64,000 nucleotides of DNA from NCBI GenBank assembly GCA_039621445.1, contig CP154954.1:7079425-7143424 (forward strand), written 5' to 3'. A model generated the notes under the pieces. That model was not told the DNA's origin, ran no database searches, and was given only the letters and a program-made list of their open reading frames with translations. This document shows positions 7,142-55,450 of this stretch, piece after piece (positions within the stretch are counted from its first letter, which is position 1; every line of letters begins with the position of its first letter). The position numbers were made by a program, and so were the translations under genes. This DNA is from Euglena gracilis (Eukaryota).

Positions 7142-8924
<1,783 letters not shown>

Positions 8925-9189: not shown

Positions 9190-9393
9190 GGCATTTTTTT
9201 TGAGCGTACTCTTGTCAAAATTGCCCAAAAATTTGACCAGTTTTTCTTGGGGTTCCCAGTTGTCGTCCGACGTTTTTTGGACCCGTTGTCATGGCAATTT
9301 TTTTGAGCGTAACCTTGTCAAAATCGCCCAAAAATTTGACCAGTTTTTCTTGGGGTTCCCAGTTGTCGTCCGACGTTTTTTGGACCCGTTGTC
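9190..9393. repeat. Tandem duplication of an about 100-bp unit
   Basis: GAGCGTA..CTTGTCAAAAT.GCCCAAAAATTTGACCAG...GGACCCGTTGTC occurs twice, head to tail. Confidence 0.9.
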
Positions 9394-28600: not shown

Positions 28601-31600
28601 CGCACCGGGTCAGCCAGCCCCCCCATACGACTGCCTCGGTTCATCAGCCACTCCGTCGTTTGTGATGACGAGAAGGACGGCCCCAAGAACCACAGGAAAA
28701 GTTGTGCACGCAATAGGGTTCTGAGCACGCAACCGAGTACAATTTCACCCACATTCAGAAATGCACAACCGTATCTGTGAATTGTGCAGAATAGGTTGCA
28801 TACCAACCCCCCCCCCCCAAGAACCAGTCAGGGTCCTGCCCGGGAAACTGTCAGGGTCCCTAGAACTGGCCAACTTGTCAGGGTCATTTTTCATTGACTT
28901 TCTCTTGAAATGCCATGCCCGGAAAATTGCCAGGGTCCCGCCTGGGGAACTGTCAGGGTCCTTGGTACTGGCCAGCCTGTCATGATAGGAAGTTGTCAAC
29001 GGACCCTGATAACCCTTAATAATGGACCCTTCCAATCATGACAGGTTGGCCGATACCAAGGACCCTGACCGTTTTCCTGACAGTGTGCCGGCCGACCTGT
29101 GAGGAGGGGGGTTAGGTAGCTTGGGGAACGCTTCTTGAAAAGCAGGGGGTTCGTGAACGTCTACCTTCCGGTGGCTGACTGGAGCACATCCTGGCGAAGT
29201 CCTCCGTCGTTGCGTGGGATTACGGCCCTGTTCAGCTTTGGATGTCCAATCACCCCCCGTGAGGAAGTATTCTTTGAAATCGATCCGCTGGTCTGTGAAA
29301 GAAAAACCAACCAAAGATAATTTTCGACGTTCTGTGGAAAATTGGCTTCCACAAGACCCCCCACGCAGTCCACCTCCTGCCTGGGTGATTGACGCTGCTC
29401 TTGTCCACCCCCGTGTGCTTTCCAATTTGTCAAGCAGCAAAAGTCGACCGATGCGGCAAACACGCAATGTACGTGTATATATGGGGAGTTTTTTTTACTT
29501 TTTGAGTCGCGAGCCGTCCGATTCTCTTGCTGGAACCATGCCAAAAGTCGGTCCAAAAGGCATATTATCTCCATTGCAAAATAATATCTCTCTGACAATG
29601 ACAATTTCAACACATGAAAAAGCTGTTAAATTTTTAGGAAAATATTCCTGCTTTTTTAGGAGGTACGTTTAGGTCGGAGGGTCAGGTCTTGGGAGTTGTT
29701 CATAGTGGGGAGGTTCATTTGCCCACCCTTCGAGGTGTTCCTTCCCGCGCAATTTAAAAACGGTACCTGACCTCCTGTCACTTCCAAAAGCCACCACAGC
29801 CCCTAGATGGCCAGTTTTCCAAGGGGTCTGTCCCCTAAAATGGACCAAACATGGACCATGAATCATGTAAACCTCCGCCGTGAAAGGAAGCCCAAATAAA
29901 AGTCCAGAATTAACCCCATTTAAGACATCAGCTAAACGAGCGAAGCGCCGGGATGATGGGGGGGAAATCCCTGGTTATTGTCCAAAAGCCCATTTCGAAA
30001 CACAATAGATGGTGAAAAAACTCTGATGTTTCTAGCAACAGATGCAAAAATAACATTCTTTGGGTTCTTTGGCTGGTTAACCAAAACTTTTTTGCCAATT
30101 TTCCGCAGGGTAAGGGTTTAAGCCAAAGTTTGGCCCCTCCCCTCCCATAACTGGCCCCTCCCTCAAATAGACCTTTGGAAGCAGTGGGTCTTGTCAAAAG
30201 GTGCTGATATCGCAGGCTGACCCCATCACCTGCAAGCTATTTCCCCTCGGAGGCCTTGAGCAGCCGTTCATTGACACGAAGACGGGAGTAGCCGTGAAGA
30301 CTGCCATTGCTTGCCTATGTTCAGGGGCCCAAAATCCCACTCAGGACTGGGGCACAAATTTCAAGATTTCTTTCACTGATTTTAGCCCTGCCCATAAACA
30401 CTCCACAAAGGCATCCAATACCATATTTTTTGGTGCCGGAATAATTTTTGGCTTTTTTTTGGCGCTTTTCTTCACCCCATAATTGACCCCCCCCCAAAAG
30501 TGGGTCCCTGGACCCCCTCGCCCGGGGGTGGGTGTACCCCAGCCTTCGGTATAAGGATGGCTTTGGGGTTTGGGTGGGGGTGCGGTCCCCCCCGGACCTG
30601 AGCGGGGGTCCGGACCCCCCCCCCCCGCCTGCAGGGGGGTTCAGACCAACCCTGGGGGGGGGGGTACCCACCCCCTGAAAGGTCAAAATTTTCCTTTCGG
30701 TGTTTTCCGCCGAAAATTTTTTTTTGCATTTTTGAAATATTGTTGCCCAAAGAGTGCCTAGAATGACATTTTTTGGCCGTTTTGAGTATAATTTTTGGAG
30801 TTGAAAATCGGTCGTCCGGACCGTGCCATTGTTGATCCCACCAGATTCCACCGGATCCCACCGGACCCCACCGGAGACCAAAAGCTGGGGTTGACTGTCC
30901 TTGCCTGCATATGCGCACACACAAACCAACACACACACACACACGCGCGCGCTCGTATGCTCCAACCCACCCACACAAACACACACACACACACATACCC
31001 ACATGTATGTGTTTATTGTGAATATTATATTTTGGTTATACCTTTCGGCATTAGGAAATAAAGTACCATACCGCCAGATTCATACTTCTCGGCTTATCAT
31101 TCCAATGCCTATTTTATTTCTGATTTTTTTGTTATCCTGATTTGGGTGTTACCAGCCAGATTATATTTTACGTCCCATCCCCCGCCTGGCCCCGTTACAC
31201 AGTGCCTCAAACTCGTAGACAGCCGCATCCCCCGTCACGTGGAGCACGCAAAGTGGTTCCGGTTGGCACCCGTAAGGTTTTTTTGCTCAACTGTTAGCAT
31301 TTTTTTGACAGCACACAAATATTGTCAGCAAAATGCAAAAAAAAAAACGAATATATTTATTGGAGTGTGTCTGTTTTTTGGGGTACATTGTGTTCACAAA
31401 TTTTGTTTTCAACCTTGCATCAGAGTTTGTTAGTTTACCTTCGATCTGTGTAACCTGCAGACACAGCTTTGCACCAGCAGCGCCGGAACGAGCATCCCAA
31501 AGTTGACCTGTGTCCTCGTCTGAGCCGGTATCTTTTGCCAGCCCCGAACCAACTCCGGGGCCACGTCCCGCGGCTGGACCTCGTGGTCAGCGCGGAGGTG

Positions 31601-34600: not shown

Positions 34601-37600
34601 GGTGGGCCCCCGGGGCCAGGCGGCGACCTCCGGCGCTTCCTCTCCGTCAACCTCGCCGTGCTGTTCGGCTTCACCATGTCGCTCCACATGCTGACCTCCA
34701 GCGCGGAGCATTGCGGCTTCGACGCCTTTGCGGAGCGCTTGTGTCCAGGGTGTGGGATGGGGCAACCACTTTTTTTCTTCTTCAAAGCACACCAACCATT
34801 CATTTATCCACTCCTCCTACCCCCAACATTCACAACCTCTCCCCTCAGTCGCCTGGGCTGCACTTTCAGGGCAAGTACCTCCCCCCCCCCCTTGTCCAAC
34901 GACTGGGCTTGTCCAACGACCCCCCCCCCCGGTCAGAGACGATCTTTTTGTAGACGATCTTGGGGAAATGATACTTGATAATGTTCTTGCTTTTGATTTT
35001 GTTCTTTGCAGCTTCTCCGACTTCTGTGATGAACCACTACCCAGTGGGTTGTTGTGTTCTCTATCGTCGCTCGAATGGTGATGTTGCAAAATGGTCGTGT
35101 GGTAATTTGTTCCATCTTCCTTGAGTCAATATTATGCATGATATTGGCTATTGTCAGGCGCGAAGCGCCAAAAATTTCCAGCGAGACGCGCCGGAAATCC
35201 CCCCCCCCCCTGTCTAACGACCACCCCCCTGGTCAGAGACGAATATTGGCCATTTTAACAACTGCCCCCCCCCCCCGGTCAGAGACGAACATTTGCGGTC
35301 GTTGGACAAGGGGGGGGTATGGACAAATTAATAGTTATGAATGAATACATAGTAGTTTACCAATTTTTTTCATCCCTCTTGCAACAAAAATGGTAATCTC
35401 TCTCTTTTACTCAGCAGGTTTTGACTGGCAGGTTTTTGGTTGGCCAAAGGGTTTTACGCTCCTGTGAGAGTTCGAGCATTTTACTCCACTCCTTCACTCT
35501 TTCAGGCTTGTCCACATGATTCCCCAAAAGGATGCACGGTCCAATCTGATTTTTAATTTTCTTTTTTGGTAGGCATTCACTACCCTCTGCTGTCGGCAGT
35601 TGGTGCTTCTGGGGCTGGTGGGCGATTTCCCGTTCAAGGAGTACAATGAGCGTTTCACCGGGGGCCGCATGCTGCTCATTGAGCTGCTGTTCACACTGCC
35701 CAGGTCACATGGGTGTTCAAGTTCCAGTTTGGCTGTGGTTTTTTGTTCATTGCCACCATCTGATTTCTCATGATGTCATCTCCGTGCATTGACGGGATTT
35801 TTTTCAAGCCACGACTTCCAGAGTCTGACAAACACAAAGCGACCAGGTTTTGATATAAGGAGGGCGTACATGGTTTAGGTGGGGGGTGTCCCCCCCCCCC
35901 CCCCCCCCCCCCTGGCCCGCAGGGGGGGTCCGGACCACCCCCCCACCTGCCAGGGGGGTCCGGACCGACCCTCGGGGGGGGTTCCCGGTACCCCCCCCAA
36001 AAAGGGTCAATTTTTTCCTGCGGCGCTTTGCGCCGAATTTTTTTTTCATTTTTGGCACATTTTTGCCCAAAAAGTGCCCAAAATGGCACTTTTGGTCGTT
36101 TTGGGGGGTCAAAAATTTTCGGCCACCCTGACCGCGCACCTGTTTAGGTGGGGGGGTGTCCTCCCCACCCCCCCCCCCCTCCTGGCCCGCAGGGGGGGGG
36201 GTCCGGACCCCCCCCCCCACCTGTCCTTATATCGAACCCTGAAAGCGACACATGGTCAATATCGTCCTCGGTCCCCCATGGACCTGCTCCCGTACATAAT
36301 TCTAGTTGTAATCCTGCTGCTCAACCAGGCGGACTGTTCGCTTTTCTGTTTCAGTTTTTTTTCTCGTTTATTTTTTCTCATTTTTTTTTACGCTCATATT
36401 TCAAGTGGCGTTGAATCAAGCCCCTCCCCCCCGGATGAACACTCAAGAAGGCACTGGAGGCAACCAAAAACTGAGAAACTCAGGGAATTGTTTCGGCATT
36501 CCCATGAACTCTGAGCAGGCTTCTTTTTGAGGAAGGTCGCACCTTCGGGGAGGGGGGGGGGTGCCATGGACGGTGGGCGGGGTAGGGCATTTTCGACCCC
36601 CACGAGGTTCCCAGCTCGAAAATGGCCATTTTCAGTGGAGTTTTGCCTGGGTCCGTAGGCACCTGGGCCCAGCCCCCACCTTGGGGGGGGGGGGCTATGG
36701 GCAGGCACCTGATATATTAATATACCCCAACCCAACCAATATATGGATTGGGGTATATTACCAACCCATACCCCCGGGTTGGTAAACAGAAACCTGACTC
36801 CCCTCTTCTGGGAAACAGTCAGTCAGTTACATATGCACGCTACCGCCTGCTGGCAACCTGCTCATTGCAATGATGGGCAACACGTACGCTGCAGTGCAGG
36901 ACCAGGCAGAGAAGCGTTGGTACCTGGGGCCAGGGGATTTCTTAGCTGGTGCCGACCCTGGGGTCGGCCATTCTGCACCTTTTCCCCCAGCCAGCAGCTC
37001 CCGTGGGCTCAGGAGGTTGAAAATTGCCTGTGTCTTTATTTCCTCACCAGGCGATGAATGAAATTTTTTTAGAACATTCGAAAAATGGCTTTGTGTGTTT
37101 TGGCAAAAGGTGGCCAATCACTAATTCAGTTTGACCTCACAGGCAGGTGGCCACACCTTTGTCAATTGGCAGTTGGCCACTGGCAAATATGACTTCCCCC
37201 CCTGAGAATCACGGGGGGATTTTTGCTGTCGATTCTTTTAAATTGATTTGTTGTTGATTCTTTTATTTTGAAATTGATCGCTTCAATGCCTTCAAGGCCA
37301 AAAGAATCAAACAAGCTGGTTTTAAGGAAAGGGGTGTTCAGGCCAGCTCCTGTTTCGTCCAGTAAGTTGGCCTATGGCCCACTCAACCCACCTCACATTA
37401 ATGGGGTGATGCCTCACCCTTTGGCACTCCTAAATTTCCGACCCAATGCTCTGGGGGGTTGTGTTCCACGAGCCTGGCAGTCATCCCTCTTGGGGGGGTT
37501 CCCGCCAGCGGTTTTTTGCTCTCAGTGCACTGACTGACACTTCAAAGTCCTTCAGAACTCCCCTGCTTGCAGCGCGCGAACCTCATGGCCAGGGGGCAGC

Positions 37601-38261
37601 CGAGTGCAACGAAATGAGTTTTGTCGGTATTTTGGAGTAATGTCAACTACTGGAGAGCGGGGCATGGCGGCAGAAAATGTGTGAAGATTTTGTATTGCCT
37701 CTGGTTCCGCTTCATGGAAGCTTTTTTGTGGCGAACAAAGGTTTTGAAGGTCCATTGCTTCGTATTCACAAGTTTCTTGGCAAAATTGACCCATATCACA
37801 GGCATATTTGTTAAAGAACTCCAACCTTTCAACAGATGGGACTCTTCCCATCTCATGTGGGGTGTAGGGGTGCCTGAAAGTATTTTCTCCCATTTGGGTA
37901 TGAAAACCCTACCTGTGACGGAATCGGCTGAAGCAGTTTGTACCAAAAGCCTGAGTTGGAACAATTGACCTCCGAAATACATAATTCAAAGAAAAATCCA
38001 AAAATCTCGAAAAGCGTCATTTCTAGATATAAGGACGTGATAGGTTGACTCCCTGCTTTGCTAAATGGGTTATTTGCCACTTATTGGGTTATTTTTTTCA
38101 GGTGTTTTGGGGATGTATTTTGACCTTGATTTGATATCCAACAAAACAATCTCTTTATCTCTCATGTAGGACTGTATGGGACGTGTGTGTGCATGCGTGC
38201 GTGCGTGTGTGCGTGCGTGCGTGCGTGCCTGCGTTTCGTGTGTGTGTGTGTGTGTTTTCTG

Positions 38262-38297
<36 letters not shown>

Positions 38298-40006
38298 ACG
38301 CGCGCGCGCGTGTGTGCGTGCGCGCGTGTGTGTGTGTGTGTGTGCCGGTGGAGTGCCGATTGGACCACCGGGCCGCCCCCTGCCACAGGCGGCATACGAG
38401 GCGGAGTACACGGTGGATCAGATGCAGCAGCTGCGCAAGCAGTTCGCCACGCCCTTCAGCCAGTCCGACGCCGCGGTGACGCGGGACACCGGACAGGGCG
38501 TTACTTGTTTGCCATTGTTGCGCACCTGCTAGTTTGCACGGTTGCACTCTTGGGGCTGTATCATGGAACTATTATGTCAAAGTATTTAACCTTTTTGGCT
38601 AGGATTTTTGTATCCTTTTATATTTGTGTTTCGGAAAAATCTGCACATGGAAAACACACAAAAAAATTCCCTCGAACGCCCCCCCCCCAGGGGGACTAAG
38701 TGGTAGGCGCATGGGTGCTGGAGATATAAACAAAATCACCCGAAGAACACAGAGAAAACCCCATTTCCACCGTGCGTGCAGCGCCGGAGTGGCTGTGGGA
38801 TGTGGGCGAGAAGTGTGCAAATAAATCCTTTTGACACAGATGTATCGTCTCAATATCCCCCCCCCCCCGTCCACTGACCACCTCTAAACAACAACCACCC
38901 CCCCAGATGCAGATGGTTTTGAAAATTGGGTTGTTTTTGACACCTAGTTGTGCGACCACCTGGTCGGGGATCGTAGGTTTGGGGGGCGCGTATGACCTCC
39001 CCCCCTGGTCGGGGGTTGTACCCCGCCCCCCCCCCTATGTCCAACGACCGGAAACCTCTGTCCTCTGACCGGGGGGGGGGGGGCGGTCGTTGGACATAGG
39101 GTAGTGGCCAAAAAGGTGTCCTCTGACCTGGGTGGTGGTCGTTGGACACGGGGTCGGGAAAAAAAAGTTTGCCAAAACCCCCCAAACAGGTCAAAATTTT
39201 CCTTCCGGCGCTTCGCGCCCCCATTTCCAGCCCTGTCAACAAATATTTACTTAAATAGCACCCAAAGCTGGCATCCTTGGACGATTTTGTTGCGGTGATG
39301 ACGTCAAGAGAACATGCAAGGAAAATGCAAACCATCTTCACTCCATCATACAACCTAGCAAACACCCGAAAATGTCACGGTGGAATGTTGGGAGTGTGGT
39401 GAAGCTCCTTCAACAACCGCAGGCACTATCTCCCCGGTGGAGCGCTCATAATGCACAAAACTCCCCGGCGGGAACAATTTAATGGACGATGGGCTGCGGG
39501 GTAGAGGACAAGGGTGGAAGAAAAGCCTTTCAGGGCTGGCAAACCTCCGGTTTTCGCACACCTGCAAAAAAAACATCAAACCTCTGAAAAGGTGTCCTCT
39601 GACCGGGGGGTTGTTCGTTGGACATAGGGGGGTCGTTGGGCATACGGGGGAGGGGGGCAGGCTATTGCTGAATAATAATTTTTTGTGCCCTCCACTTAGC
39701 CAGCCCAAATGTCAGCCATCAGATCAAGAGCTCAGTCGAGTTGAGTTGGGGTCTCAACTCAACAGCCAACTCTTCAGTCGTGGCTTTCCCGTCGCCCAGC
39801 CCCCAGCCCCCCCGCAGCGGAGGGGCAGGCGGGATGAACGCCTTGGCGTGGAGTTCTGCCTGACCACCACCTTGCGGTCCGGGGAGTGGAAGCTGTCGTC
39901 GGCGAGGCGGGCCAGTCCACCCACTGGGCCGCCAACCGCCGACCGCGGAGGACGGTGGACGCGGAAGACACAAGAGGTGACTCTTTTCTTCTGGTCCATT
40001 GGATGA
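13671..40006 (+). CDS. TRPV/OSM-9-like ankyrin-repeat 6TM cation channel, paralogue 2 (about 25 exons)
   Basis: Approximate exons: ..13700, 14380-14600, 15573-15658, 16379-about 16500, (unresolved gap), 23640-23791, 23963-24054, 24532-24631, 24822-24891, 25671-25779, 26240-26294, 27066-27083, 28452-28550, 29183-29229, 30225-30318, 31194-31249, 31570-31711, 32056-32103, 32241-about 32340, 32848-32926, 33268-33349, 34329-34377, 34618-34742, 35595-35697, 36292-36322, 36855-36927, 37571-37586, 38388-38490, 39851-40006. TRPV motifs appear in the expected order: DAVGANPIHIA, YSGENILHIAI, TTGSFF..YFGGFPLLFAAASNQ, DRFGNTALHLAV, NAEGLTPLALAA, WDYGPITCKLFPL, VLDKKWDAFG, GFRSTGPFVIMIKEM..GDLRRF, GLVGD pore, LLNLLIAMMGNTY, WYLERA. 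The start, the link between the 13.7-16.5 kb exons and the ankyrin exons, a few junction phases and the stop are uncertain. Confidence 0.88.
16547..16610. repeat. 10-bp tandem repeat (GCCCAGTCAT)x6
   Basis: Directly visible; inverted units (GTGACTGGGC) near 16764 suggest it is part of a small foldback element. Confidence 0.8.
17421..17618. mobile_element. Dispersed repeat / MITE-like (GTCGGGTGCCGACCCC family)
   Basis: Same start, GGCAGGCACCCC motif and GGCGCCGAAGGCGCC-type motif as 23323-23618. Confidence 0.55.
18985..22639. mobile_element. 3.65-kb TIR DNA transposon (degenerate or non-autonomous) within the span of the TRP gene model
   Basis: TIR CTTAGGAGGCATAAATTGCCCA (18985-19006) vs TGGGCAGTTTATGCCTCCTAAG (22618-22639), 21/22 match. 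TAATA flanks both sides (18980-18984, 22640-22644). 14 internal GAAGCG..CGCTTC dyads. No transposase motif recognised. Confidence 0.85.
27799..28250. mobile_element. MITE-like element (CAATTGTCAC/CAATTGACG family)
   Basis: TA-(G)C(n)GGGCAATTG...CAATTGCCCG(n)-TA with many subterminal AATTGTCACCC motifs. Confidence 0.7.
28803..29116. mobile_element. MITE-like element (CTGTCAGGGTCC family)
   Basis: TA-flanked with oligo-C/oligo-G ends; shares GGGTCATTTTTCATTGACTTT and repeated CTGTCAGGG with 43100-43413. Confidence 0.75.
30480..30830. mobile_element. Dispersed repeat (GGGGTCCGGACCCC family)
   Basis: Similar to 35860-36230 (GGTCCGGACC dyads, AAAGGTCAAAATTTT, GCCGAAAATTTTTTT). Confidence 0.5.
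33559..33825. mobile_element. MITE-like element (CCTATAAGAAACCC family)
   Basis: TIR TAAACCCCCCCCACCTATAAGAAAC / GTTTCTTATAGGTGGGGGGGGTTTA; five further TATAAGAAAC motifs; central GGCGCCGAAGGCGCC. Confidence 0.8.
33826..34266. mobile_element. MITE-like element (CCAGCCAGCAGC family)
   Basis: CCCCCGGGGGGGGTCCAGC...GCTGGACCCCCCTCCCGGGGG inverted ends with repeated CCAGCC. Confidence 0.6.
34878..35317. mobile_element. MITE-like element (GTCCAACGAC family, subfamily A)
   Basis: TA-C(n)TTGTCCAACGAC...GTCGTTGGACAAG(n)-TA; ends match 48125-48889. Confidence 0.85.
36323..36854 (+). other. Non-conventional intron present only in TRP paralogue 2
   Basis: CTC|AACCAGGCGG...CCGCCTGCTGGC|AACCTG; perfect 7-bp stem. 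Paralogue 1 reads CTCAACCTG uninterrupted at about 2146-2154. Confidence 0.9.
36928..37570 (+). other. Non-conventional intron present only in TRP paralogue 2
   Basis: CTGG|GGCCAGGGGA...TCCCCTGCTTGC|AGCGC; 7-bp stem; removal restores WYL-E-RANL. Confidence 0.9.
38183..38344. repeat. (TG)n/(TGCG)n microsatellite
   Basis: Directly visible. Confidence 0.9.
38491..39850 (+). other. Non-conventional intron present only in TRP paralogue 2
   Basis: ACC|GGACAGGGCGTT...AACGCCTTGGCGTG|GAGTTC; 9-bp stem with one G-U. Paralogue 1 reads GACACCGAGTTC uninterrupted. Confidence 0.9.
39021..39657. mobile_element. MITE-like element (GTCCAACGAC family, subfamily B)
   Basis: C(n)TATGTCCAACGAC...GTCGTTGG.CATA.G(n); reverse-orientation relative of 44058-44478. 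Confidence 0.75.
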
Positions 40007-41365
40007 TGGATGTGATTCATAAGCTGGATGTCATCTGGTTGCGGCAAGACATCACAGAAAATTTTTTAGTATTTTGCCGGGAGCACGCTGCATATTGATT
40101 TGGGTTTAAAATGATGATGGTTGGGTGGGCATGGGACTTGCCAAGGCTCTGTAATGACCGGAAATTCACATGCTGACGGCTTTTACGCTTGTTATGCCAT
40201 CCACCTGTTGACCGCATCTCAACCCAAATCCCAATTCATGTTTTTTGTTTATCCCCGGCGTGGGAGGGGGTTCGTCCCTGGGCATTCATGTGCGAGAATG
40301 ATCAAGTTTTTGAAGAACTCAATTTCTGGCTGCATAGCACCCGCCTTGTTCGCATGGACAACCGGCTGGCGGCCGAGTGGCCCTGAACGATAACCCACCG
40401 CCCGCCTCTCCCCCATGACACTCGCCGTCCCTGAACCCAACCCTCCCCCTCCCGCTGTAGTTATTCCGCCCATTTGTCCCGGGGCTCCTCCGGGCCCCGG
40501 TCCCGCACTGCGCGGCTCAGTGCGTCGTCGAAAGCGTTGCGAGGCCCCCTTTCGCTCGCCGACAGGGCGTCAGCCCTGCGGGCTGGCGGCGGAGGGGGGC
40601 TGGCCACCTGAGCGAAACCAACCATCTCCGCGAGCTCATCTGGCCACCTCGATGCTGTCCACCCAAAATCGTCCTGCGTGCAATCAAGGTTCTCTAACAC
40701 CCACTTACCCTCCTCGGTCGCAGGACATTTTTCAGAGTTTGGCCAGATTTTCAGTGTGTTGCAAATCCCGTCTTGAAAAAGTTTTCTGCCAAAAATCACC
40801 TTATGCTTAAAATACCATTTGGGGCACCATATTTTGGCGATTTGTGGTGTTTGAAAAAGGGGGGGATAATTCCCATATTGTGGTTTGCAAATTTGGGAAA
40901 TTGCCTGGGGTGCACCTGTGTCGTAAAGTTGAGCCTCCATTTCGGTTTGGGGAATGTGTGCATGGGTTTGGGAGATGGGTGATTGGGGGGGTTGAAAAGC
41001 TGGTTATGTGCGTGTGGGGGGTGCCAGTAGGTGGTGGTGTGCATGCCATGGTTATGTTTTGAGCATAGTTGGAAGGAAGAGTGAGTACGTGCAAGAGTTG
41101 CTTACAAAGGTATTCATAACCCACTCCACTCACCCGGCAGGTTTGGTTGCAGGTTTTTTTTGATTGAAAGCCAGAGGAATCCCTTCAACGGTTGCTAACA
41201 AAAGAACATTGCTGTGCATTGTCTAATGAGGGTTTGTGTGTGAATGGATGCTCAATCCCCCGATAATTTCTTGTCCTGATGACGATTTGGCGCGTCCCTG
41301 GCAGGGGCATGTTTCCATTGCCCCTGCGCCGCGTGTCCCATTTCCCACCCTGCGCCCCCCCCCCC

Positions 41366-41379
41366 CCCAACTTTCGCAG
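41366..41379 (+). promoter_or_regulatory. Candidate splice acceptor (cis or spliced-leader trans) just upstream of the b561 start codon
   Basis: Pyrimidine tract plus GCAG 12 nt before the ATG, conserved in copy B (CCCTTTGCAG ending at 55438). Confidence 0.45.
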
Positions 41380-41391
41380 GGGCTGTTGAGA

Positions 41392-44300
41392 ATGCAGTTT
41401 GCCGCACAGGCTCCGGAGGTTGGGCAGGCGGAGTACTTCACGCCGACGCCGGAGGTGTACGTGTACCCGGAAGAGCCACAATGTGAGGTGGGGAAGTGGC
41501 CCGAAGGTATGCTCCACTCCTGTCCTTCTGTGTTTCACTCTTGTTCGTATCCGTGTCTCAGTGAATTGACTTTTTTCTTAATTTCAATTTTGATTTGTTC
41601 ACAGGGTATAATGCAGCAACACGATGGTGCAGGAGTGTTCCTGTTTTGAAAGGAATGCAATAATTTTCAGAATTGTAGAATACTTTGTTCCACACGCTTT
41701 TTCATTTGGACAGGCTAATGCTCTTCTTGTTGCATTTCTGCAGAATCCCTTTTTGTGACTCCACAGAGGGCCAGCCAGAAGTACTCCCAGCCTCCCACCC
41801 GTGGCATTGGTGGCGGTGGGTACTGTGGACCAGACCAACATTTGGTGGCAGTCACCAAAGATACCGCAGGCAAATTATTCCATGTTATATTTCAATTAAT
41901 GCATTCATTTTTTCTTTTGTTCGGAATTAATACATTCGTGCTATTTTTATTATTTATTTGAAACAAATTGCACGTTTCAGCTTATGTATATTTGATGATT
42001 TTTTTTAACACGCAGTAATACTCAATGTAATTTCCTCCTTCCCCATCTCCAAGGGCCACCCCGTCCTGACCCATGGCTTTTATATTCTTTCAAAGAGCAT
42101 TCTTTTGTGTCCTTTTGTGAGATATTGCTTTACATTTCGCCATTATCATCAGAATGTTTTAACGAGATTTTTTTGATTTCTCCCCCACTTATTGTTCCCG
42201 CCGTCCAATGTCCAGCACCTCCCTCCCTTCCCTGGTTATGGCGGGATTTATTAAAGGATGGACCCTGGGGGACAGGGAGGGTCGGTGGGTCCGCCCACCC
42301 CCCGGGGGGTTGCTTCCAAGTGCGTTGTGGGTCCCCCACAAGGTTCTGGCTTTTTTGCCTTTTTTTTTTCGGTGCAAGGGCTCCAAATTTTTTTGACCCC
42401 ATATTTGACCTCAAAAATGCCCCCCCCAGGGTGGAGGGGCGCTCTTTGGGTGGGCGGGGTTCCCCCTGGTGTCTGTCTTATGACCACATTTCCGGTGTAC
42501 CCAACCAATGGACCGGGGGTGGGTATTTGTTGGCCCTGGACGCCCGATCCGATCCCCCGATCCCCCCCTAACGTCGCCTCTGCAACGCTGGCCTGAGGTG
42601 GGCGCTGCCCCGCTTGCTGCTCGTGCCCTTCCTCGCCCTGTTCTTCCTGTGGGTGTTCAACGCCGAGGGGGGCGTCGGGCTCGACGCCTCCAGCCTCTTC
42701 GGCCTGCACGCCGTGCTGATGGTCGTCTTTGTGCTGCCCAGACCCCCGGCCCCCACCGATGGCTCATGGTGCAATGTGAATGTGCAGCGAATGAGTCTCA
42801 GGCGTGAATATTTTTTTGGAAAATCGTATTGGGCAGCATGTTGAGGGGGAAGGGGCGCGCGTCACGCAAACTATTTCTTATAGTCTTTTATGTTTCTTAT
42901 AACACATTTTTTCTAGCAAAAATTATTACTTGAATTTCCAAAAAAAAAAAGGTTGCCATTCTTTCAGTTTCCTCAACACAAAGCAGGGGAAAGTGCTTGG
43001 GAAAAAACCTAAAAAAAAACTGGTTGAACGCAATGAGAAATATTTTGCGGCAATATAGCTCTATACTATAAATAATATATATTTAGCTCTATAATCATAC
43101 CTACCCCCCCCCCCCCGGAAAACTGTCATGCCCGAGAACCTGTCAGGGTCCCGCCCGGGAAACTGTCAGGGTTCCCCGGTACCGGCCAACCTGTCAGTAT
43201 AGGAAGTTGTCAGGGTCCCCGGTACCGGCCACCCTGTCAGGGTCATTTTTCATTGACTTTCCCTTGAAGTGCCCTACCCGGGAAACTGTCAGGGTCCCGC
43301 CCGGGAAGCTGTCAGGGTTCCTGGTACTGGCCAACCTGTCAGTATAGGAAGTTGTCAGGGTCCCCGGTACTGGCCAACCTGTCAGGTGACAGTTTCCCGG
43401 GGGGGGGGGTAGGTATCAAAGGTTATTTTTTTTATAAAATTAATTAATAATTTTAATAATATATATATGCATAATTGATAATTGTAATATTATTAATATA
43501 ATCATATAATTAATAATGAATATAAATTTAATTAATTTTTAATATTTTCTAGGCTTTATGTGATTTTTTGGGGGGCTGCATTAACCATTTTCTAGCTGAG
43601 GCTTCACAGAGAGAAGCCAAACACCGGTCGATAACTATGGGAAAATATGTGGGGATTTCAGCGATTTTACCATTTTTGTCTATGGTAATTTTTGTTTGTC
43701 ATGCATTTTAGAGTTCACGCATAATTCTTCGAAGTGGTTGCCACCGACGTAAGGGTTTTCGCCAGCATACTTTTATTGGTGTATCGTTCCTGAACTTTTT
43801 TTTGGATGTTTGATGTATGACTGGCTGGGGCCTTGTTCCGATCTGCATGCAGGAGGCCCTCCTTGTCTATTCCGTTCCACTTTTCGGGCCTCTGCCGGTT
43901 CCCCGAGCTGCCTCCAAGTGTGCCGCCCCCAACTCGACGTGGCTGTGCTGCGGCGAAAATGAATGGGAGGCTGGCCAGTGTTGAGGCCGGGGGTTGCTTA
44001 ACACGGGTGTTGCGTAACGCGCAGAACCCCAACGTTTCCGCAATCAAAGCTGCAGTACCCCCCCCCCCCTATGTCCAACGACCACCCCCCCTCGGTCAGG
44101 ACACCTTTTCGGAGGTTTGATTTTTTTTGCAGGTGTCTGGAAACCGGAGGTTTGCCAGCCCTGAAAGGCTTTTCTTCCGCCCTTCGTTTGCATTTTCTTT
44201 GCATGTTCTCTTGACCTGATCTCCGCAACAAAATCGTCCAAGGATGTCAGTTCTGGGTGCTATTTAAGTAAATATTTGTTGACAGGGCTGGAAATGGGGC

Positions 44301-47300
44301 GCAAAGCGAAGTTTTGGGGGGGTTTCCGCAAAAAAAAAATCCCGACCCTGTGTCCAACGACCACCCCCCCTGTCAGAGGACACCTTTTTGGTCACTACCC
44401 TATGTCCAACGACCGCCCCCCCCCCCTGGTCAGAGGACAGAGGGTACCGGTCGTTGGACATAGGGGGGGGGAGGGGGGTAAGGTGGGTTGGAGTGGGACC
44501 AGGATCAGTGTCTAGTAAATTGGCTGGCCAGGGTCCTCAACCAAAAAGCTGAGTGGGACAGACATTTATTCTACCGTTGAAATATACCAAATGTTAGGCG
44601 ACTCATCTTGCTATTAAGTTTTTTTTCTGGTTGGTTTGTTTTCATCTCCGCCTCCTGGGCCTCACATCACATCCTGCTCGCATTTTTGGATTTTTGGGGT
44701 CATATCTTGTCATTTTCACAGGGGGGGGGAAATTTATATCCGCAATTTTTCCGCAATTTCCGCAAATTTCCGCAATTTCCGCAATTTTCCGCAATTTTCC
44801 GCAATTTTTCCGCAATTTCCGCAATTTTTCCGCAATTTTTCACCGTTTTTTTGAAGAATTTTTTCCCCACCACCGAAGATGGAAGATGCAATGAGTTCAA
44901 GCCATTCTTCAAATGGATCAACAGGTGTGCTATTGTGTTTTGTTGTCCCCCCCCAGTTTACCAATTTTTCTCACAGGTGCACCACTGGTCACAGGATTGG
45001 GTGCGTCCCACCTGTGCAAAGAACATCAAGCGTGTTGATTTGTGCTCGCCTGCATCGACGTGGGTGTTGCGGTGTTCTGAACCTCACAATTGAAAATTTT
45101 CTAAGTCCCCCCAAGCAGAAATGTGTATACCCGATATCAATTTTTCCGCAATTTTTCCGCAATTTCCGCAATTTTCCCGCAATTTTTCCGCAATTTTTCC
45201 GAAGGCCTCCGATATCAATTTCCCCCCCCTGATTTTCATAATAAAAAAAATGTCGATGTGCGCATTTGCGCACATCGGCAAAGAAAAAAAGTGCGAGATG
45301 CGCTGCCTGAGCAAATCTCCGACTGCATTTCCCTCAGCCTCTTTTCATTTCCCTGTTCCCTAGCTTGGGGCATGAAAGGAAAGCATCAGTTTCTCTGCAA
45401 AAAAAAACACTGAATTTTGGCAAATTGATTGGAACAGCAAACTTACGGCAATATCATCCCAAAAATGAAGTGTCAGCAATCCACACAATTTGGAAAAAAT
45501 GAATGCCTGTGTTGATGTTAATTTGGTTTTGTTTAGATTTTGTTTTGTTTAGTTTGAAAATATTATTCCCCAAACAATATATTGTAAATATAAATTATAC
45601 AATTATACAAAAATACATATGTATGTATGTATAATATAATATCAATGAAAATGCTTCAAGAGGTTGTAAAATGAAGAATTTGGCTGCATTTATCATGTAT
45701 GGATGGATGGGAGTAAGGGAAGCAGCTGGGCAGGCGGTCAGGCAAGCAGGAAAAAAAAATGAAGAAGGCCTTTGTGCGGTGGGCTTTTGGCCTCTGGCCT
45801 TCATTTTTTCCAGGGCTTCCCGGTTCCATAAGGTGCTCCCGCGCAGGGCCGTCCACGCTTTCTTCCACCTCGCCGGCCTGGGGTGCGCCGTTGGGGGGCT
45901 GGTGGCCATCGTGTCCTACAAGCGCCAGAACGGCGACAACATCTACCCGAACTACCCGGTGTACACCCCCCACTCCTGGGTGGCCATTGCCTTCCTCGCT
46001 TTGTGGACCATGGATTCATTCAACACCCGTGTGACCCCACCCTCCGGGCGGTAAATGGGTTTTTGTGAGTGGGTGGGTGAGTTGGGGCCTCTGAACCATC
46101 TCAGGGGGGTGGGGTACACTACGGGGCAGATTTTGTCCGAGCCAAAGTCCGTGCCGGAAAAACGTGTTTTCGGCTGATATTGACTGGATTTTGGAAGTTA
46201 GATTTTGGTGGGTGGTTTTGGGCCTAGGGAAAAGGTCCTCCCCCAGAGTCACGAAGTGAATCTATGTTGTAGACCCTCCAGCTGCTGGGAGCAAGCCACT
46301 GCCACGCATGGTGGTGTCAAATGAGGGATAACTGTGCAATCGAATGCACCTTTTCTTCAAGATGTTTGTTTTTTTTTCAGTTTACAGTTGCTTTCTTAAA
46401 GCTATTGAGTTTGAACATTTGACTACAAGACGACTTGCATTTCCACCAGTGAGATTATTAGTTCTGCAGTTAATTTGGGGGGAATGAAAAACCACTTTTT
46501 TGTGTAGCTTTTCTCTCCGGTCCAGAGAGAAACTGCATGATTTGATTCACAAACCTGTCTATCCGAAGCAATTACCACGCCTTTCTGGCCGAGAACCCAT
46601 TATCAGGAAGTATGTCACCACTGGTCATGGTGACTTAACTGAAATTGTTGTGTTTCGTCCCATAGCAGTTGCAGTGGCTTGTCGTGGAGGTGCTGTTGTT
46701 TTTGCTCTCATCAAGGATGAGCAGATCAAGCAACGATGCAGGGCCACCACCCATCTCATGATGATTTCTTTTTTTTTGTCTGCACACGTACACCTATGCC
46801 GCCGAACTCAGAATTACAGAAACATGAAAGTATTTGGTTGAAACATTTTTGTGTCTGATGTCTTTCTAATAAGACAAAATTCATTTAAGTCTGTTGATTA
46901 TTTGCCTTTGTTTATTTGTTGGGGGGGGTAGACGTTCAATTAACCCAACTGCAAATCTCGCGTGGAATATTCACTTTTCGGATTCTCAAATTCTCAAAAA
47001 TAATTAACAGGTGCATTTTTGCACATTTTAGAAATGCAAAAAAAAGGTTCCTTGGGTTGAATCCGACATCTGCGGTTCACCTGCATAAGGGATCCCACCT
47101 TCAAATGGGGACTTCAAACGTGCCCTTAAGTGCGGACATTGAAGAGTTTCTTTTCAACAGTTGGCTGCAACTCGCTGACTGGTGGTGTTGATGTTGGTTA
47201 CGGGGTTCCCCTTCTGCCCCCTCACGCGCTGGAGCCAGTTTGCTACCAGAGGCTGTTGATAATCCTATTAATGACCAGGAGAGTTTGGGGCAAAGAAGTC

Positions 47301-49400
47301 CCCCCGGTGGGGGGCAAATGGGAATCTGCCGACCTCATTTTACACTCTAAGTTTTTAATTCAGATGGATCTGGCCACCCGGGCTGAAAGTGCCAAAAGCT
47401 AAAAAAGTTGCAGTCTGCCAAACCGTTTCATCCCCAACCCGGCATTTTTTTCCAGCCAACTCTTCTCAGCCGGCTGCCGGAATTCCGCTGGGGGACCCCA
47501 CCATCTCCGTTTCCTGTGTGGGGGTTTAAATGCCCTCGACAGAGAAGTAACCCCGAATTTTTCGAATTTTGATCGGGATTGGCGGTGCGGGCGACGTTCC
47601 ACCGCTTCTTCGGGAACGTGACCTACGGGGTCGGCCTCGCCACGTGTGCCTTGGGCTTCCAGGACATGCAGTCCAGCGACCTCTCGTGGCTGGCAACCAG
47701 GGACTGCTTTAATAATACAACATATATTCTATTATATGTTTATTGTATTATTATATAATATTATAATAATATAATATACAATATTATATTATATTATATA
47801 TTTATATATATTTTTTAGATATTGATTTAATAACAATATCGAATATTCATAATTAATTTGGACATCACAGACGCTTCTTCTAAGAATTGGTTTTCTGTAA
47901 AATGTATTTTTCAAAGTCCCATCCCCCACCAGGTCCCCTGCGCTGCTGAATAAAAGTCTCTGCGTCCGATGCCCAACATGACGGACGCAATGGCGTCCAT
48001 GGCGGGCATGGACATGGACATGCCCGACATGCCCACGGGCTACCAGTACAACTCCATCCTGGCCTGCTACGCCAGCGCCTGCAGACCACGGTGGCTGCAA
48101 TTATATGTGACTGATCCCTTCCTACCCCCCCCCCCTTGTCCAACGACCGGGCTTGTCTAACGACCACCCCCCGGTCAGAGACGATCTTTTTGTATACGAT
48201 GTTGGTTCAGTACTGCGAAAAAATTGTGTGATTTTATTTTCGGTTTAGTTGCATTTGCATGTTCCAGTGATGCTTTTTTTTTCGATTTGTTTGGGATTAA
48301 CACCCTAAAATGGCAGAAAATGCCAAAACAGCACAAAAAAAGGCCAAAAGCTCCCCAAAATGGTTACAAATCACCCCAAAATGACTGAAACGTATGGAAA
48401 GTGTGAGATTGTTCCAAACGGCTGAAATTTGATTACAGTTGGCCAAAAATGGGCAAAAATGGCCTGAAATTGGGCAAAAAGTGGCCCAAAATTGCCAAAC
48501 GTGGCCAAAAGTTGCCCAAAATGGCCAGAAGTGGCCAAAAAATGGCTAAAGAAACCAAAAATGGCCAAAAGTGGCCAAGAATGACTAAATGAAACCAAAC
48601 GTGGCAAAAAATGGCCAAAAGTGACCCAAAAATCCCAAGAGTGGCCAAACAATGGCCAAAAGTGGCCAAAAAAATGGCAGAAGTCGCCAAAAATGCCGAA
48701 AATAGCCCAACGTTGTCCAAAATGACCAAATACCCCCCATATGTGGCCAATTTATTGCCGACCTGGGGCCCACCCCCCTTGTCTAACGACCACCCCCCCT
48801 GGTCGGCGACGAACATTGGCCAATTTAGCGACCGCCCCCCCGGTCGGAGACGAACATTAGTGGTTGTTGGACAAGGGGGGGGGGGGAGGTAAGGGAAATT
48901 ATCTTCCCTGAGAAACTGTCGTTTCACCGACGTTTTGGGCTGCAGTGCCCGGGGACAGTTTCCCGAGAGGGGCATATTGTTTATCAAAAGGAGAAGAACA
49001 AAGTTTGGAATTTCACTACATACTGCTCACCCCATTGTTGGCCCACTAGGTGCAAGGATCCTCCACACTCATCAACATCACGCACTCGCAAAGAAAAAAG
49101 AATTGGTTTGCTTTAAATACCCGCGTTCAATATTTCCCCCAAGCTTCTTTTTTGTGCAGAGCTAAATTTTGTAACGGAAGGATTTTGGAAACCCAAAAAA
49201 ATTTCTGGCCCTTCGCTCCAGGGTTTTTCTCCCGGGGGGGGGTGGCACCTCCCCCCTCCTTTAATACCCTGCTCACAAGGCATGAGGGGCAGAGCAAGTC
49301 CGGGCCTCTCCGCATCACATCCATGTCCCAGCCATTGTGCGACTGTCTGTTGCTGGTGTTCATCGGGATCGCCACGTTCTTTGTCCAGCTTTTCAAGTGA
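41392..49400 (+). CDS. Cytochrome b561 family di-heme transmembrane reductase with Met-rich loop, copy A
   Basis: Exons 41392-41506, 41767-41831, 42596-42735, 43840-43917, 45847-about 46010, one unresolved short exon near 47460-47500, 47586-47694, 47968-48083, 49345-49400. Four heme-ligand His occur in b561 context: FGLHAVLM..QEALLVY, KAVHAFFH, YTPHSWVA, TFHRFFG. Introns 41507-41766 and 43918-45846 are GT-AG; the resolved others are non-conventional. Confidence 0.87.
43100..43413. mobile_element. MITE-like element (CTGTCAGGGTCC family), copy-A-specific
   Basis: TIR CCTAC(n)GGAAAACTGTCA / TGACAGTTTCCCG(n)TAGG with TA on both sides; about 11 TGTCA motifs; absent from the homologous intron of copy B. 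Confidence 0.85.
44058..44478. mobile_element. MITE (GTCCAACGAC family) with TA target duplication and a visible empty site
   Basis: GCTGCAG-TA-[element]-TA-AGGTGGGTTGGAGTGGGACC in copy A vs GCTGCAG-AA-AGGTCGGTTGGAGTGGGACC at 57433-57461 in copy B. Confidence 0.92.
44719..45231. mobile_element. Non-autonomous TIR element with 7-bp TSD and CCGCAATTT arrays
   Basis: TIR CAGGGGGGGGGAAATT / AATTTCCCCCCCCTG; ATTTTCA directly repeated at 44712-44718 and 45232-45238; tandem CCGCAATTT(T) near both ends. Confidence 0.88.
48125..48889. mobile_element. MITE-like element (GTCCAACGAC family, subfamily A) with internal TGGCCAAAA tandem repeats
   Basis: TA-flanked; ends match 34878-35317; degenerate AAGTGGCCAAAA array at about 48440-48730. 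Confidence 0.85.
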
Positions 49401-49583
49401 GTCGTGCGACTTAATGATTTGCTTGACTCCCACTCTGTGCTTAAGTGATCTGCCTCCCCTCTGCCTAGCTGGAGGCTGATGCCTGCCTCGCTTGGTGCAC
49501 CCCCATTGTCTGCAGATTGTCTGTTTCCTGCCGAAAGTTTGGGCCGACAAACACACTGCTTCGCTGAACACCCATATTTTTCT

Positions 49584-49584
<1 letters not shown>

Positions 49585-49681
<97 letters not shown>

Positions 49682-49783
49682 CATGTATATGTATATGTAT
49701 ATGCACATGTATATGTATATGCACATGTATATGTATATGCACATGTATATGTATATATATATATATACATATATATAGACATA

Positions 49784-49815
<32 letters not shown>
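49585..49815. repeat. (TATATG)n hexanucleotide plus (TA)n microsatellite
   Basis: Directly visible; absent from the homologous position of copy B. Confidence 0.97.
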
Positions 49816-49816
<1 letters not shown>

Positions 49817-52800
49817 GTGGCAGCGAGTCTTTACTTGGCCCCCCCCCCCGGGGGTCCAAGTAAAGACTCCAGGGGGGGGGGGTCCGGGTAGTATCCCCCG
49901 GGTCCGGCGTTGCCCCCGTTTCGGTCCCAAGTTTTTCACCACTCTGAGCCCTCGTTCAACTGCTTTTCCCCTTGTTTTCTTCTGGCGGTGAACACAAATA
50001 ATTTGCACGTCCCGGTTTTTTTCTAAAAGAAATTGTAACATCATTTTTGCGCACTAAACGTCGCAGCTGAACGTTGTTGAACTGTTTTTTTTTTAAAGAA
50101 AGTTCTTCAAAAACAATTTGGTCAATGCTTTATTCTAACGTGCACCATTTTGCAGTTGTTTTTGAACAACAAGATTTTGAGGTTATGATTGGGAAAACTC
50201 CGAGGAAAAACGCTCTGTGAGCTTTATCTTATCTATTTATTTTTTTTTCGGTTTTATTTGGGTCAATTTTTTTATGGGCGATTTTATGTATTTGTACCAC
50301 ATCATCTGCTTTTTTCCCCCATTCAGTACTCCTGGACAGCAAAGCCACCAATAGCCCAAGCTTTGCACCACTCAACAGCCCAGTTGTGGGTCGGTGAGTC
50401 TTTTGTTCCGAGTCTTCAGGTCTTTAGGTTCTTGGACCATGGCACATGCTCAACCGTTCTGGGATTTGAAAAAAAAATCTTGTTTTTGTTGTTACCTTGA
50501 AAGAACTTCCTCTTCCGCAGCACATTCTTCGAGTTTTTTTTTTTAAACCCTCCTTACTTATAATTTTGCAGTGTCCCAGTTTTTTTTTTTAAATTAATAA
50601 CATTGATTCAGCACACTGAACGCGCTCAACTGAACGTTGTTGCACATTTTTTTAAAGGAAATTCTTCAAAAACAATTTCGTCAATGCTTTCTTCCAACGT
50701 GCACCATTTTGTTGTTATTTTTGAACAACAAGGTTTTGAGGTTGTGACTGGGAACGCTCTGTGAGCTCTTTTTTTATTTTTATTTTTGGCGGGTCTTATT
50801 TGGGGTGTTCTTGTTATTATTATTTTGTGGGCGACTTTATGTGTCTGTTCTTTTTTTTTGCATTTCGGCATTCCTGGATTGCCAAAGAAATTTCTTTTGA
50901 TGATGTGATTTTGGAAGGCTGGAATCAACCCTGCGAGGTAGTGTAAAAAATTATCGTCTCCAGCCGCTGTTTCCCGTGTGCCTGGCAACGAACGCCTGCA
51001 GGCGCCTCGAGTCACCGTCCGGCTCAGCTGGTTGTGTGCTGTGTCCTCCTACGGCGGGGTCATTCAGATTGTACACCAACCAGACTTCCAGTGGGGTACG
51101 CATAGTCCGTTGCACCAACCGTAGAACAATAGACTGGTCACTTTCTTTGGCTTCTGATTTCATTTATTCATTTAGCTATGTTTCAAGTTGCTTAGTCTCC
51201 ATGCGCACCTAAACTCTGGGGTCAAAGTTGCAAAATGGTGTATAGATTTTGTAACATTTTGTTAAAGTGATTTTTTGGTTGTCATCATTTGAACGCAGCG
51301 AATTTAGATAGAGGTCCTCCCTGAAAAAGTCGACCCCCCCCCCAATATTAGAGTTTCGCCGGACCGTCCTGAAGTCCCTCGGAAGTTTCAAAGCCAGGGG
51401 GGTAAAATTATTTTTGATTTTTTTTGCATATCTGGTTTCTGAGGGCAATCAGCCCGAAGAACGTGGCTTTCACAGAGGGAGCATCACGTGTTGAAGGGTT
51501 GACTGTTTTCTAAACATCCAAATATCTTTCCTGATAAGTGAGCAACATAGGATACATTATCCCTACCGTCATCACAGTTACACCCACGTATGTCTGTAGC
51601 GTAAAAATATATGAAAATGTTGTGTGTTTTTGTGAGGGATCTGTTTGTATTGTCTTTTTGTGCTGGCCGAGTTTCACATAGCCCCCTTTGCCCCCTATAA
51701 AGTGTAACTGCCTCTCTTTGATCAGAAGCTGAGGATCTCGGTCTTTGGATAAAGAATTGGAGAGGAAAATTTTCACTGAATATGTTTAATTTTTGCTGCG
51801 GATCGTCAGTGTAGTCTCATGTGCAGTCTGCTATGACGTCGCATGCAGGTTTTTTTTTGGCGCAGTGGTTGTGGAAGAGCCCCGCCATCCCAGTCGCACC
51901 ACTGCCGAGTTCCAGTACTGGCTTCGGCCACGTACTATGATGGAGGCCAGCGCCCCTGTGTAGCCCTGGGCTGCACTCGCGCGAGCCGTCCTATATCGCC
52001 GACTCTGGCGGTGGTGTGGCTGGCGGTGGGGTCGGGAGCAGCCTCCCCAACCCAAGCCCAGACCCACAGTCCAGCGTCTGTTGGTTTGTGCTGGCATCGC
52101 CCTGCGCGTCCCGGGGAAGCTCAGGAGGTCCCGGGCCTGAATTTCAGCTGAAATTTGGTCAAGTCTCGATGGTCCGTCCCAAACCCAGCCGGTCCCAGGC
52201 AAGGCTTCGATATTTGTTGCCATGCTCCCAGGGAAAAGCTGAAACGATCGCCCATGTCAGTGTGTTTGACAAGGGGAACCTCCCTCTCATGCACCTTTGC
52301 TGCTTTGAGCATAGTTGGAAGGAAGAGTGAGCACCCGCAAGAGTTGCTTGCAAAGGTAGTTAAATGCCAGTCTACTCACCCGGCGGAATATTTTTTTGGG
52401 TTGCAAGTTTTTTTTTTTTGATTGAAAGCCAAAGGAACCCTTTCAAAAAAAGGGGTTGCTAACCAAAGAATTTTCATCTTATCACTTTTTCTGCACATAG
52501 TCTAATGAGAGTTTGTGTGTGAATGCATGTGGTGAGTGGCAGCTATGTTGGTGTGTGTGGGTGGGTGGGTGGGTGTATGTGTGTCCCCCCCCCCCGGGTG
52601 CTTGGGCTCTCCCACTTCTTAATATGCAAACTTGGCCCCAGGGCAGAACGGGAATCGGCCAAACAGCCAGGGTGGTAGGTGGGTGGGTGGGTCGACCCCC
52701 CCCCATCCCCTGCATGGTGGGTGTGGGGGTCGACTACCCCCTACCTCTTCCCGTATTTCCGGGATCACCAATTTTTGACCCATTTTGGAACCCATATGAG

Positions 52801-55284: not shown

Positions 55285-55450
55285 TAGTTTGAATGGTTGC
55301 CAAATCCCCCGATAATGTCTGGTGCTGATGACATTTTGGTGCGTCCCTGGCAGGGGCACATTTCCAGTGCCCCTGCGCCGCGTGCTCCATTTCCCACCCC
55401 GACGCCGGGGAACAGTGATTTCCCCCAACCCTTTGCAGGGGTTGTTAAGA

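Follow-up and report, generated by a model that had tools for sequence, protein, structure and literature searches.

A 64,000-nucleotide stretch of the Euglena gracilis genome (contig CP154954.1 of assembly GCA_039621445.1, positions 7,079,425–7,143,424; hereafter the window) holds two tandem TRPV-like genes on its + strand, P1 and P2, whose aligned coding sequences are interrupted by different sets of introns. Five introns are specific to one paralogue, four to P2 and one to P1, and all five follow the published nonconventional splicing code of Euglena or a base-pairing variant of it. We conclude that these are probably ordinary Euglena nonconventional introns, differently placed in two old, still-constrained gene copies. 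The original prediction for this locus was right that the introns are nonconventional and that their positions differ between the paralogues; its further proposals, that such introns are still being created and that they descend from introner-like elements, are not supported.

We aligned the two genes by comparing the window with itself and with Euglena transcript proteins (blastn and tblastn). The P1 exons at 716–818 (QLVLLGLVGDFPF...FTL), 2119–2238 (S6 and a TRP-box-like stretch), 3747–3872 and 4149–4215 (the final coding exon, which includes the stop codon) correspond to P2 35595–35697, 36292–36322 plus 36855–36927 plus 37571–37586, 38388–38490 and 39851–39918, respectively. Once the exons are joined in frame, 122 codons can be aligned, and they show 17 amino acid differences and 54 nucleotide differences, matching the approximately 120 codons and 17 differences first estimated. 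The three common intron positions proposed at the outset are confirmed and have the same codon phase in both genes: position 0 lies before 716 in P1, where the preceding intron ends at 715 with CTG-N5|G, and before 35595 in P2 (intron 34743–35594); position 1 holds P1 intron 819–2118 (GCCCAGGTC...CCTGCTGCC|A) and P2 intron 35698–36291; and position 2 holds P1 intron 2239–3746 and P2 intron 37587–38387, the latter with an 8-bp stem. The introns at these shared positions are nonconventional as well.

Three introns occur only in P2, at 36323–36854, 36928–37570 and 38491–39850 (P2-only introns 1, 2 and 3), and one occurs only in P1, at 3873–4148 (equally 3874–4149), just as the original prediction had placed them. 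Each site is continuous in the opposite copy: P1 exon 2119–2238 is unbroken at the sites of P2-only introns 1 and 2, P1 exon 3747–3872 is unbroken at the site of P2-only intron 3, and P2 exon 39851–39918 is unbroken where P1 has its own specific intron. Three proteins derived from transcripts (P0006, P0007 and P0008) are also uninterrupted over every site (...LLLNLLIAMMGNTY...WYLERANLMAAYEAE...DTEFCLTTTLRSEEWK), and P0007 reads TTTL|RSEEWK across the P1-only intron. A fifth specific intron, absent from the original prediction, lies in P2 at 39919–40384, where P1 and EG_transcript_44968 run on to a stop codon. The P2-only introns leave exons of 31 nt (36292–36322) and 73 nt (36855–36927; NLLIAMMGNTY...WYL), and a 16-nt micro-exon (37571–37586) is flanked by two nonconventional introns. 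An assembly artefact was ruled out as the source of the intron difference by an independent DNA run, whose contigs match 36875–37588 and 37567–38178 without any difference.

Knock-in mutagenesis has defined the Euglena nonconventional code as 5'-N3-CDG...CH'G-N5-6|purine (Nomura et al., 2025, PMC12501133). The first eight introns that we compared all fit N3-CAG...CTG-N5/6|R or its G-U variant TTG, and 17 of the 22 P2 intron intervals fit the code once the published CGG-CTG and CTG-CAG forms are included; the remaining five are unassigned or possibly conventional. Among the five specific introns, CAG (at +4 to +6) and CTG are exact in 36323–36854, 36928–37570 and 3873/4–4148/9, TTG stands for CTG in 38491–39850, and CAC and GTG form the pair in 39919–40384. 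The junctions read ctc|AAC-CAGGCGG...CCGCCTG-CTGGC|aac in P2-only intron 1, ctgg|GGC-CAGGGGA...TCCCCTG-CTTGC|ag in P2-only intron 2, GGA-CAGGGCGTT...AACGCCTTG-GCGTG|G in P2-only intron 3 and ACC-CAC...GTG-GCCCT|G in the fifth intron, and the P1-only intron has a CAGGCC/GGCCTG stem. None of the borders is GT/GC-AG: they are AA..GC (36323), GG..GC (36928), GG..TG (38491), GC..CC (3873) and AC..CT (39919). The downstream exon begins with a purine in every case (A, A, G, G and G, the P1 intron being read in the register 3873–4148).

The clean 7–9-bp stems that had been claimed for the three P2-only introns are indeed there: counted from intron position +4, contiguous pairing runs for 7, 7 and 9 bp, with one G-U pair in the longest; the fifth intron has a stem of ~13 bp and a duplex energy of -34.1 kcal/mol. 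When two P2-only introns and the P1-only intron were folded whole to their minimum free energy, the terminal stem formed in all three. Over 21 introns, each intron's own ends pair more strongly than mismatched ends (mean -19.3 vs -15.05 kcal/mol, p = 0.001), and the four introns listed in the original prediction pair no better than the other 17 (p = 0.35). Stems of 6–9 bp are found at these ends because the splicing code of this intron class requires them, and with pairing energies no better than elsewhere they would not be marks of recently inserted elements with terminal inverted repeats (TIRs), as had first been suggested. Under the code, three free nucleotides precede a CAG that pairs with CTG to open a short stem, five or six free nucleotides come next, and a purine begins the following exon; when the introns are cut out at these set distances, the reading frame is exactly restored.

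Three raw RNA runs were mapped to the window. In run X21, exon 38388–38490 has a depth of 19–25 reads, the all-intron bin 37643–38309 has a depth of 0 and bin 36976–37642 a depth of 0.2; the RNA depth of bin 36309–36975 can roughly be accounted for by its 87 exon bases, and depth is higher in bins that hold repeats. Two P2 junctions predicted from the code, 18846|23705 and 39918|40385, are confirmed by loose read ends that match the window exactly; at the latter, 15 reads of X21 and 9 of X22 cease to match at 39918 and pick up the letters at 40385. P2 is expressed. The CAC...GTG pair of 39919–40384 falls outside the published CDG/CH'G formula, yet according to these loose ends the intron is spliced. 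For the three P2-only introns we infer splicing from RNA depth confined to exons, from the transcript proteins of the paralogues and from the exact restoration of the reading frame. The ratio of nonsynonymous to synonymous divergence (dN/dS) is 0.13 over the 122 P1/P2 codons, and the two genes are still under purifying selection.

Judged from domain content, the gene family is TRPV-like. P0008 and P0007 match Pfam Ank_2 (E = 9e-16) and Ion_trans, giving ankyrin repeats followed by a six-transmembrane ion-transport domain with a conserved S6; P0009, an E. mutabilis-like homologue, matches TRPV6 structures at E = 1e-39 (phmmer) and also those of TRPV5 and Nanchung. By tblastn, the window exons map onto residues 503–1144 of P0008. 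The family thus shares with TRPV-type cation channels (TRPV5/6, Nanchung/Inactive) the combination of ankyrin repeats with a six-helix ion-transport domain, and it differs in being a protist family of several paralogues for which the channel role is predicted. The window is nuclear DNA, and the best protein matches of its exons are E. gracilis transcriptome proteins at 82–97% identity (EG_transcript_44968, 820 and 25325), and an E. mutabilis transcript falls in a related protein cluster. No transcript protein identical to P2 is present in the protein collection, which returned only EG_transcript_820 (88%) and 44968 (82%), and no short genomic open-reading-frame fragments from other paralogues were found in that collection. 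A tree built from the C-terminal parts places P2 next to a group of P1 and EG_transcript_44968, as its sister (support 81/87); EG_transcript_820 and 25325 fall outside these three, and the E. mutabilis group is separate.

Only the 3' end of P1 lies inside the window (716–4215, stop codon included), and the P2 exons span from at least as far upstream as 18790 to beyond 40385, as located by tblastn of transcript proteins followed by a spliced fit. Weak matches (best E = 2.8e-7) were also observed at 7212–7801 to the coiled coil at the N-terminus of EG_transcript_820 and, at 7.2–7.8 kb, to that of P0008; because of them, P2 may start ~3 kb downstream of the P1 stop codon and have a gene span of more than 33 kb.

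The paralogues are not young. Synonymous divergence (dS) between P1 and P2 is ~0.56, and where the two genes share an intron position, the intron interiors are not detectably similar, with only ~10 nt of similarity kept at the 5' ends. The duplication is therefore old, and the changes that followed it need not be recent. Since even homologous introns have by now become unrecognisable beyond the code, a lack of relatives is weak evidence against an old element origin of the specific introns, although it speaks against a recent origin of this kind. The window also contains a younger tandem segmental duplication (41238–51164 vs 55287–63802), with 71–89% identity that extends to non-coding DNA, and none of its seven large indels combines an empty site with the code as recent intron birth would. 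One of these regions, the indel at 43993–45311, was considered as an intron-type insertion and rejected, as its candidates are at chance level and the other copy holds 326 nt there. Together, the dS value, the unlike shared introns and the younger duplication do not bear out the suggestion that introns are still being created at this locus. We propose that the five introns present in one paralogue only (four in P2, one in P1) would represent nonconventional-intron turnover since the duplication, and that the stems at the intron ends, like the short repeat at the junction, would be generic to the intron class and not marks of recent transposition at these sites.

The direction of this turnover is a lean. 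In the compared stretch, intron density is one per 34 codons in P1 and one per 19 in P2, against ~1/30 in the rest of P2. As P1 is close to the rest of P2, and P2 is denser here, additions to P2 are mildly favoured. From these local densities and from published base rates, we consider gain somewhat more likely than loss. Two ENA proteins on contigs of ~1 Mb, P0010 and P0011, were tried as outgroups for polarising the change and rejected as too distant; P0010 reads through all intron sites, and P0011 breaks after RRW, near the site of intron 36928 and not at it.

Several results count against our interpretation and bear on its rivals. A metagenome scan for euglenid outgroup loci (224 stretches, 118 confirmed, 80 kept) yielded no close euglenid genomic locus and none that could serve as an outgroup; its best match had 72% identity and was confined to the S6 helix. 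Counting events, gain takes five, and loss takes at least three, or four, conversion tracts. No RNA joint across the three P2-only introns is among the joints listed, which are DNA-contig joints at repeats. Of the 655 X21 reads mapped to the window, 432 are only 95–99% alike, and RNA reads with at least 95% match to P2 exons continue at 24531 and 31705 into letters that are absent from the window. Part of the RNA therefore comes from other paralogues, and expression extends to one or more additional TRPV-like paralogues or alleles that are closely related. Finally, the four introns listed in the original prediction have somewhat longer contiguous stems, at 7, 7, 9 and 6 bp (the last value taken by eye) where the mean is 5.2 (p = 0.013), and more matches in an 8-nt register expected of a target duplication, with 16/33 as compared with 40/139 for the remaining 17 introns (permutation P = 0.042). 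Were these two excesses real, they would point to a younger, insertion-type origin for the listed introns. The stem signal is a post hoc hint that is gone when pairing energy is used (p = 0.35), so that the idea that specific introns are younger was dropped; the register excess is likewise a post hoc hint, lost once the fifth intron is counted (17/41, P = 0.16).

One rival holds that the P2-only segments are not introns but insertions that stay unspliced in a gene copy undergoing decay; we regard it as very improbable. It would account for the missing RNA joints among those listed and for the lack of a P2-identical protein in the collection; against it stand the dN/dS of 0.13, the adherence of every segment to the code, the recovery of frame and conserved peptide upon their removal, the exonic RNA depth (falling to between 0 and ~0.2 in two all-intron or almost all-intron, repeat-free bins) and the exactly matching reads at two other P2 junctions. 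Differential loss alone is a more serious rival, possible though unlikely in our view. Here the ancestor would have carried all eight introns of the stretch, of which P1 then lost four and P2 one, whether through recombination with spliced cDNA or through precise deletion from the genome. Such loss takes no more events than gain, the adjacent sites of P2-only introns 1 and 2 could have been cleared by a single conversion tract, four of the five introns lack a clean target-site duplication (TSD), and nothing in the window polarises the change. Yet retained introns (shared positions 1 and 2) would lie between the lost ones, so several separate tracts would be needed, the ancestor would require one intron per 17 codons vs ~1/30 in the rest of the gene, and many nonconventional gains at species- or strain-unique positions have been published (PMC3935182, PMC4770533).

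The remaining rival is the reading of the original prediction, in which recently inserted introner-like elements or miniature transposable elements with inverted repeats (MITEs) supplied TIRs that became the splicing stem, with CAACC as their TSD. The inverted ends of 6–9 bp fit this picture, as do the presence in the window of mobile inverted-end repeats (39019–39632, 44064–44480), the weak register excess described above and a recent E. agilis gapC intron reported with 8-nt direct repeats (PMC4770533). The CAACC repeat itself is real: the junctions of 36323–36854 read CTC|AACCAG...GGC|AACCTG, a 5-nt repeat (c|AACC) whose chance is ~0.7% per junction. It is nevertheless weak evidence. At the four listed introns the repeats measure 5, 0, 1 and 2 nt, and one of at least 5 nt is expected by chance in ~3% of sets of four and in ~14% of sets of 21 introns. 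Slidable junctions are moreover general here: over 20 introns the slide length is 0 in seven, 1 in seven, 2 in two, 3 in three and 5 in one, with a mean of 1.25 vs 0.70 for random pairs of window positions, and 13 of the 20 are slidable vs 44% by chance (69.1% has been reported for introns of E. agilis). CAACC is thus within reach of chance and of general slidability.

A search for an element family was unfavourable to this reading. The four introns are unlike each other, and no relatives of their ends were found within the window; blastn of the introns against the window gave no match for 36928–37570 or 3873–4148, and only interior repeats for the other listed introns. On DNA run X1, a single contig spans 36875–37588 at a depth of 43.8, where other single-copy pieces have 41–51, and intron 36928–37570 is single-copy in this run. 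With stems that the code demands and that are no stronger than elsewhere, a register excess that fades to P = 0.16 and a dS of ~0.56 that leaves "recent" unsupported, we consider an introner- or MITE-type insertion improbable, and the proposed introner-like family is not borne out by the window or by this DNA run. The repeat element inside P2-only intron 3 does not alter this picture: by blastn, 39019–39332 and 39510–39632 together are a copy of the element with inverted ends at 44064–44480, which lies on the opposite strand, and the 39019–39632 element is a later insertion distinct from the intron ends.

A related idea about the origin of the code, which we hold to be quite doubtful, is that its spacers (3 nt before CAG, 5 or 6 after CTG) together make up an 8- or 9-bp TSD, one part on either side, left by cut-and-paste elements with CAG...CTG termini. 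Elements of the hAT type make 8-bp duplications and have CAG...CTG-like termini. Under an 8-bp duplication model for a CAG...CTG element, the five final exon bases followed by N3 would have to be identical to N5 followed by the first three exon bases. Over all 21 introns, this register gave 55 matches of 172 (32%), inside the range of shifted controls (22–40%). In favour of the idea are the 16/33 vs 40/139 matches, the fact that register 0 is the best among 25 shifts for the four listed introns and the published 8-nt repeat of the gapC gain (PMC4770533); counting against it are the P of 0.16 with the fifth intron and the failure to find an element family. If the model were true, the machinery would excise the element together with exactly one duplication length, and any exonic insertion would be an instantly harmless intron. 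In searches of open-access text, we found no statement of this arithmetic.

Returning to our preferred reading, of ordinary nonconventional introns differently placed in old paralogues, the likeness to the euglenid nonconventional introns described by Tessier, Canaday and Milanowski and in PMC12501133 is close: the shared features are non-GT/AG borders, CAG at +4 to +6 paired with CTG at -8 to -6, spacers of 3 nt and of 5–6 nt, a downstream purine and frequently slidable junctions. The lengths found here, 276 to 4858 nt, are also as in that class. We note no essential difference; two of our introns use variants (TTG, and CAC...GTG with a long stem). Introns of that class are known to leave the mRNA as circular RNA. 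The E. agilis gapC intron (Milanowski et al., 2016, PMC4770533) offers a parallel, as a nonconventional intron whose presence differs between closely related gene copies and whose junction carries a direct repeat; there, strains within a single species are compared and the repeat measures 8 nt, whereas here the copies are old paralogues with a dS of ~0.56 and the longest repeat is 5 nt. Introner- or MITE-derived introns (Micromonas, Polarella and Amoebophrya, among others; PMC11282704) resemble ours in their inverted ends and, at one intron here, a short flanking repeat. They differ in two respects: firstly, they are defined by many similar copies at unrelated sites, of which neither the window nor the read depth of a single DNA run gave any sign; secondly, they are removed by the spliceosome, and the introns here follow the euglenid hairpin code.

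Much of what the original prediction put forward was already in print. Fifteen nonconventional gains at species-unique positions have been reported in tubulin genes (PMC3935182) and ongoing gain within E. agilis in PMC4770533; since 2014 these reports have described inverted ends and the frequency of direct repeats, proposed a MITE-like origin and stated that acquisition is ongoing. A 2024 review terms CAG/CTG a TIR and the junction repeats TSD-like (PMC11282704), the discussion of PMC12501133 also raises a MITE-like origin, and the 2016 paper proposes double-strand-break repair as an alternative source of introns (PMC4770533). The TIR/TSD/MITE and ongoing-gain idea is therefore not new. What the present locus adds is a new case, well resolved, from a pair of TRPV-like genes, together with a micro-exon of 16 nt and a CAC/GTG variant that is spliced: a clean, fully mapped presence/absence of nonconventional introns between paralogues of one Euglena family in a single 64-kb stretch. 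It is one more case for a published pattern and leaves the overall picture unchanged, and it will inform on intron origin only after comparison with other paralogues and other Euglena species and with genome-wide relatives of the intron ends.

The window is also rich in repeats. The inverted-end family to which 39019–39632 and 44064–44480 belong has a terminal motif of approximately GTCGTTGGACATAGGG and occurs in introns and spacers, with shorter pieces near 34875–34950, 35206–35317, 48125–48192 and 9383–9506. The X1 bin that holds this repeat has a summed word depth of ~4e5, and MITE-like elements are therefore abundant in the genome. Two poly-C/poly-G palindromic elements, 89% identical to each other, lie at 35873–35949 and 36142–36223 inside P2 intron 35698–36291; related pieces are found at 30579–30784, and the bin of the P2-intron copies is very deep in X1. 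The interior of P1 intron 2239–3746 is rich in local direct and inverted repeats: within 2521–3647, 2832–3036 and 3261–3465 are 93% identical, an inverted pair extends across 2983–3234, and 2537–2576 is a perfect 40-bp palindrome. Long microsatellites of the (GT)n/(GC)n type occur in introns and spacers at 38181–38345 (within P2 intron 37587–38387), 7993–8353 and 12745–12899; such microsatellites have been reported in E. gracilis introns (PMC11170887).

Within the younger segmental duplication, frames that appear by eye to be cytochrome-b561-like lie at 45635–46054 and 58197–58790. Insertions present in only one copy of the duplication were seen at 42860–43540 and 47718–47865. The latter has a GC fraction of 0.10 vs ~0.5 for the window, and organelle-derived DNA or a satellite are possibilities for this extremely AT-rich segment.

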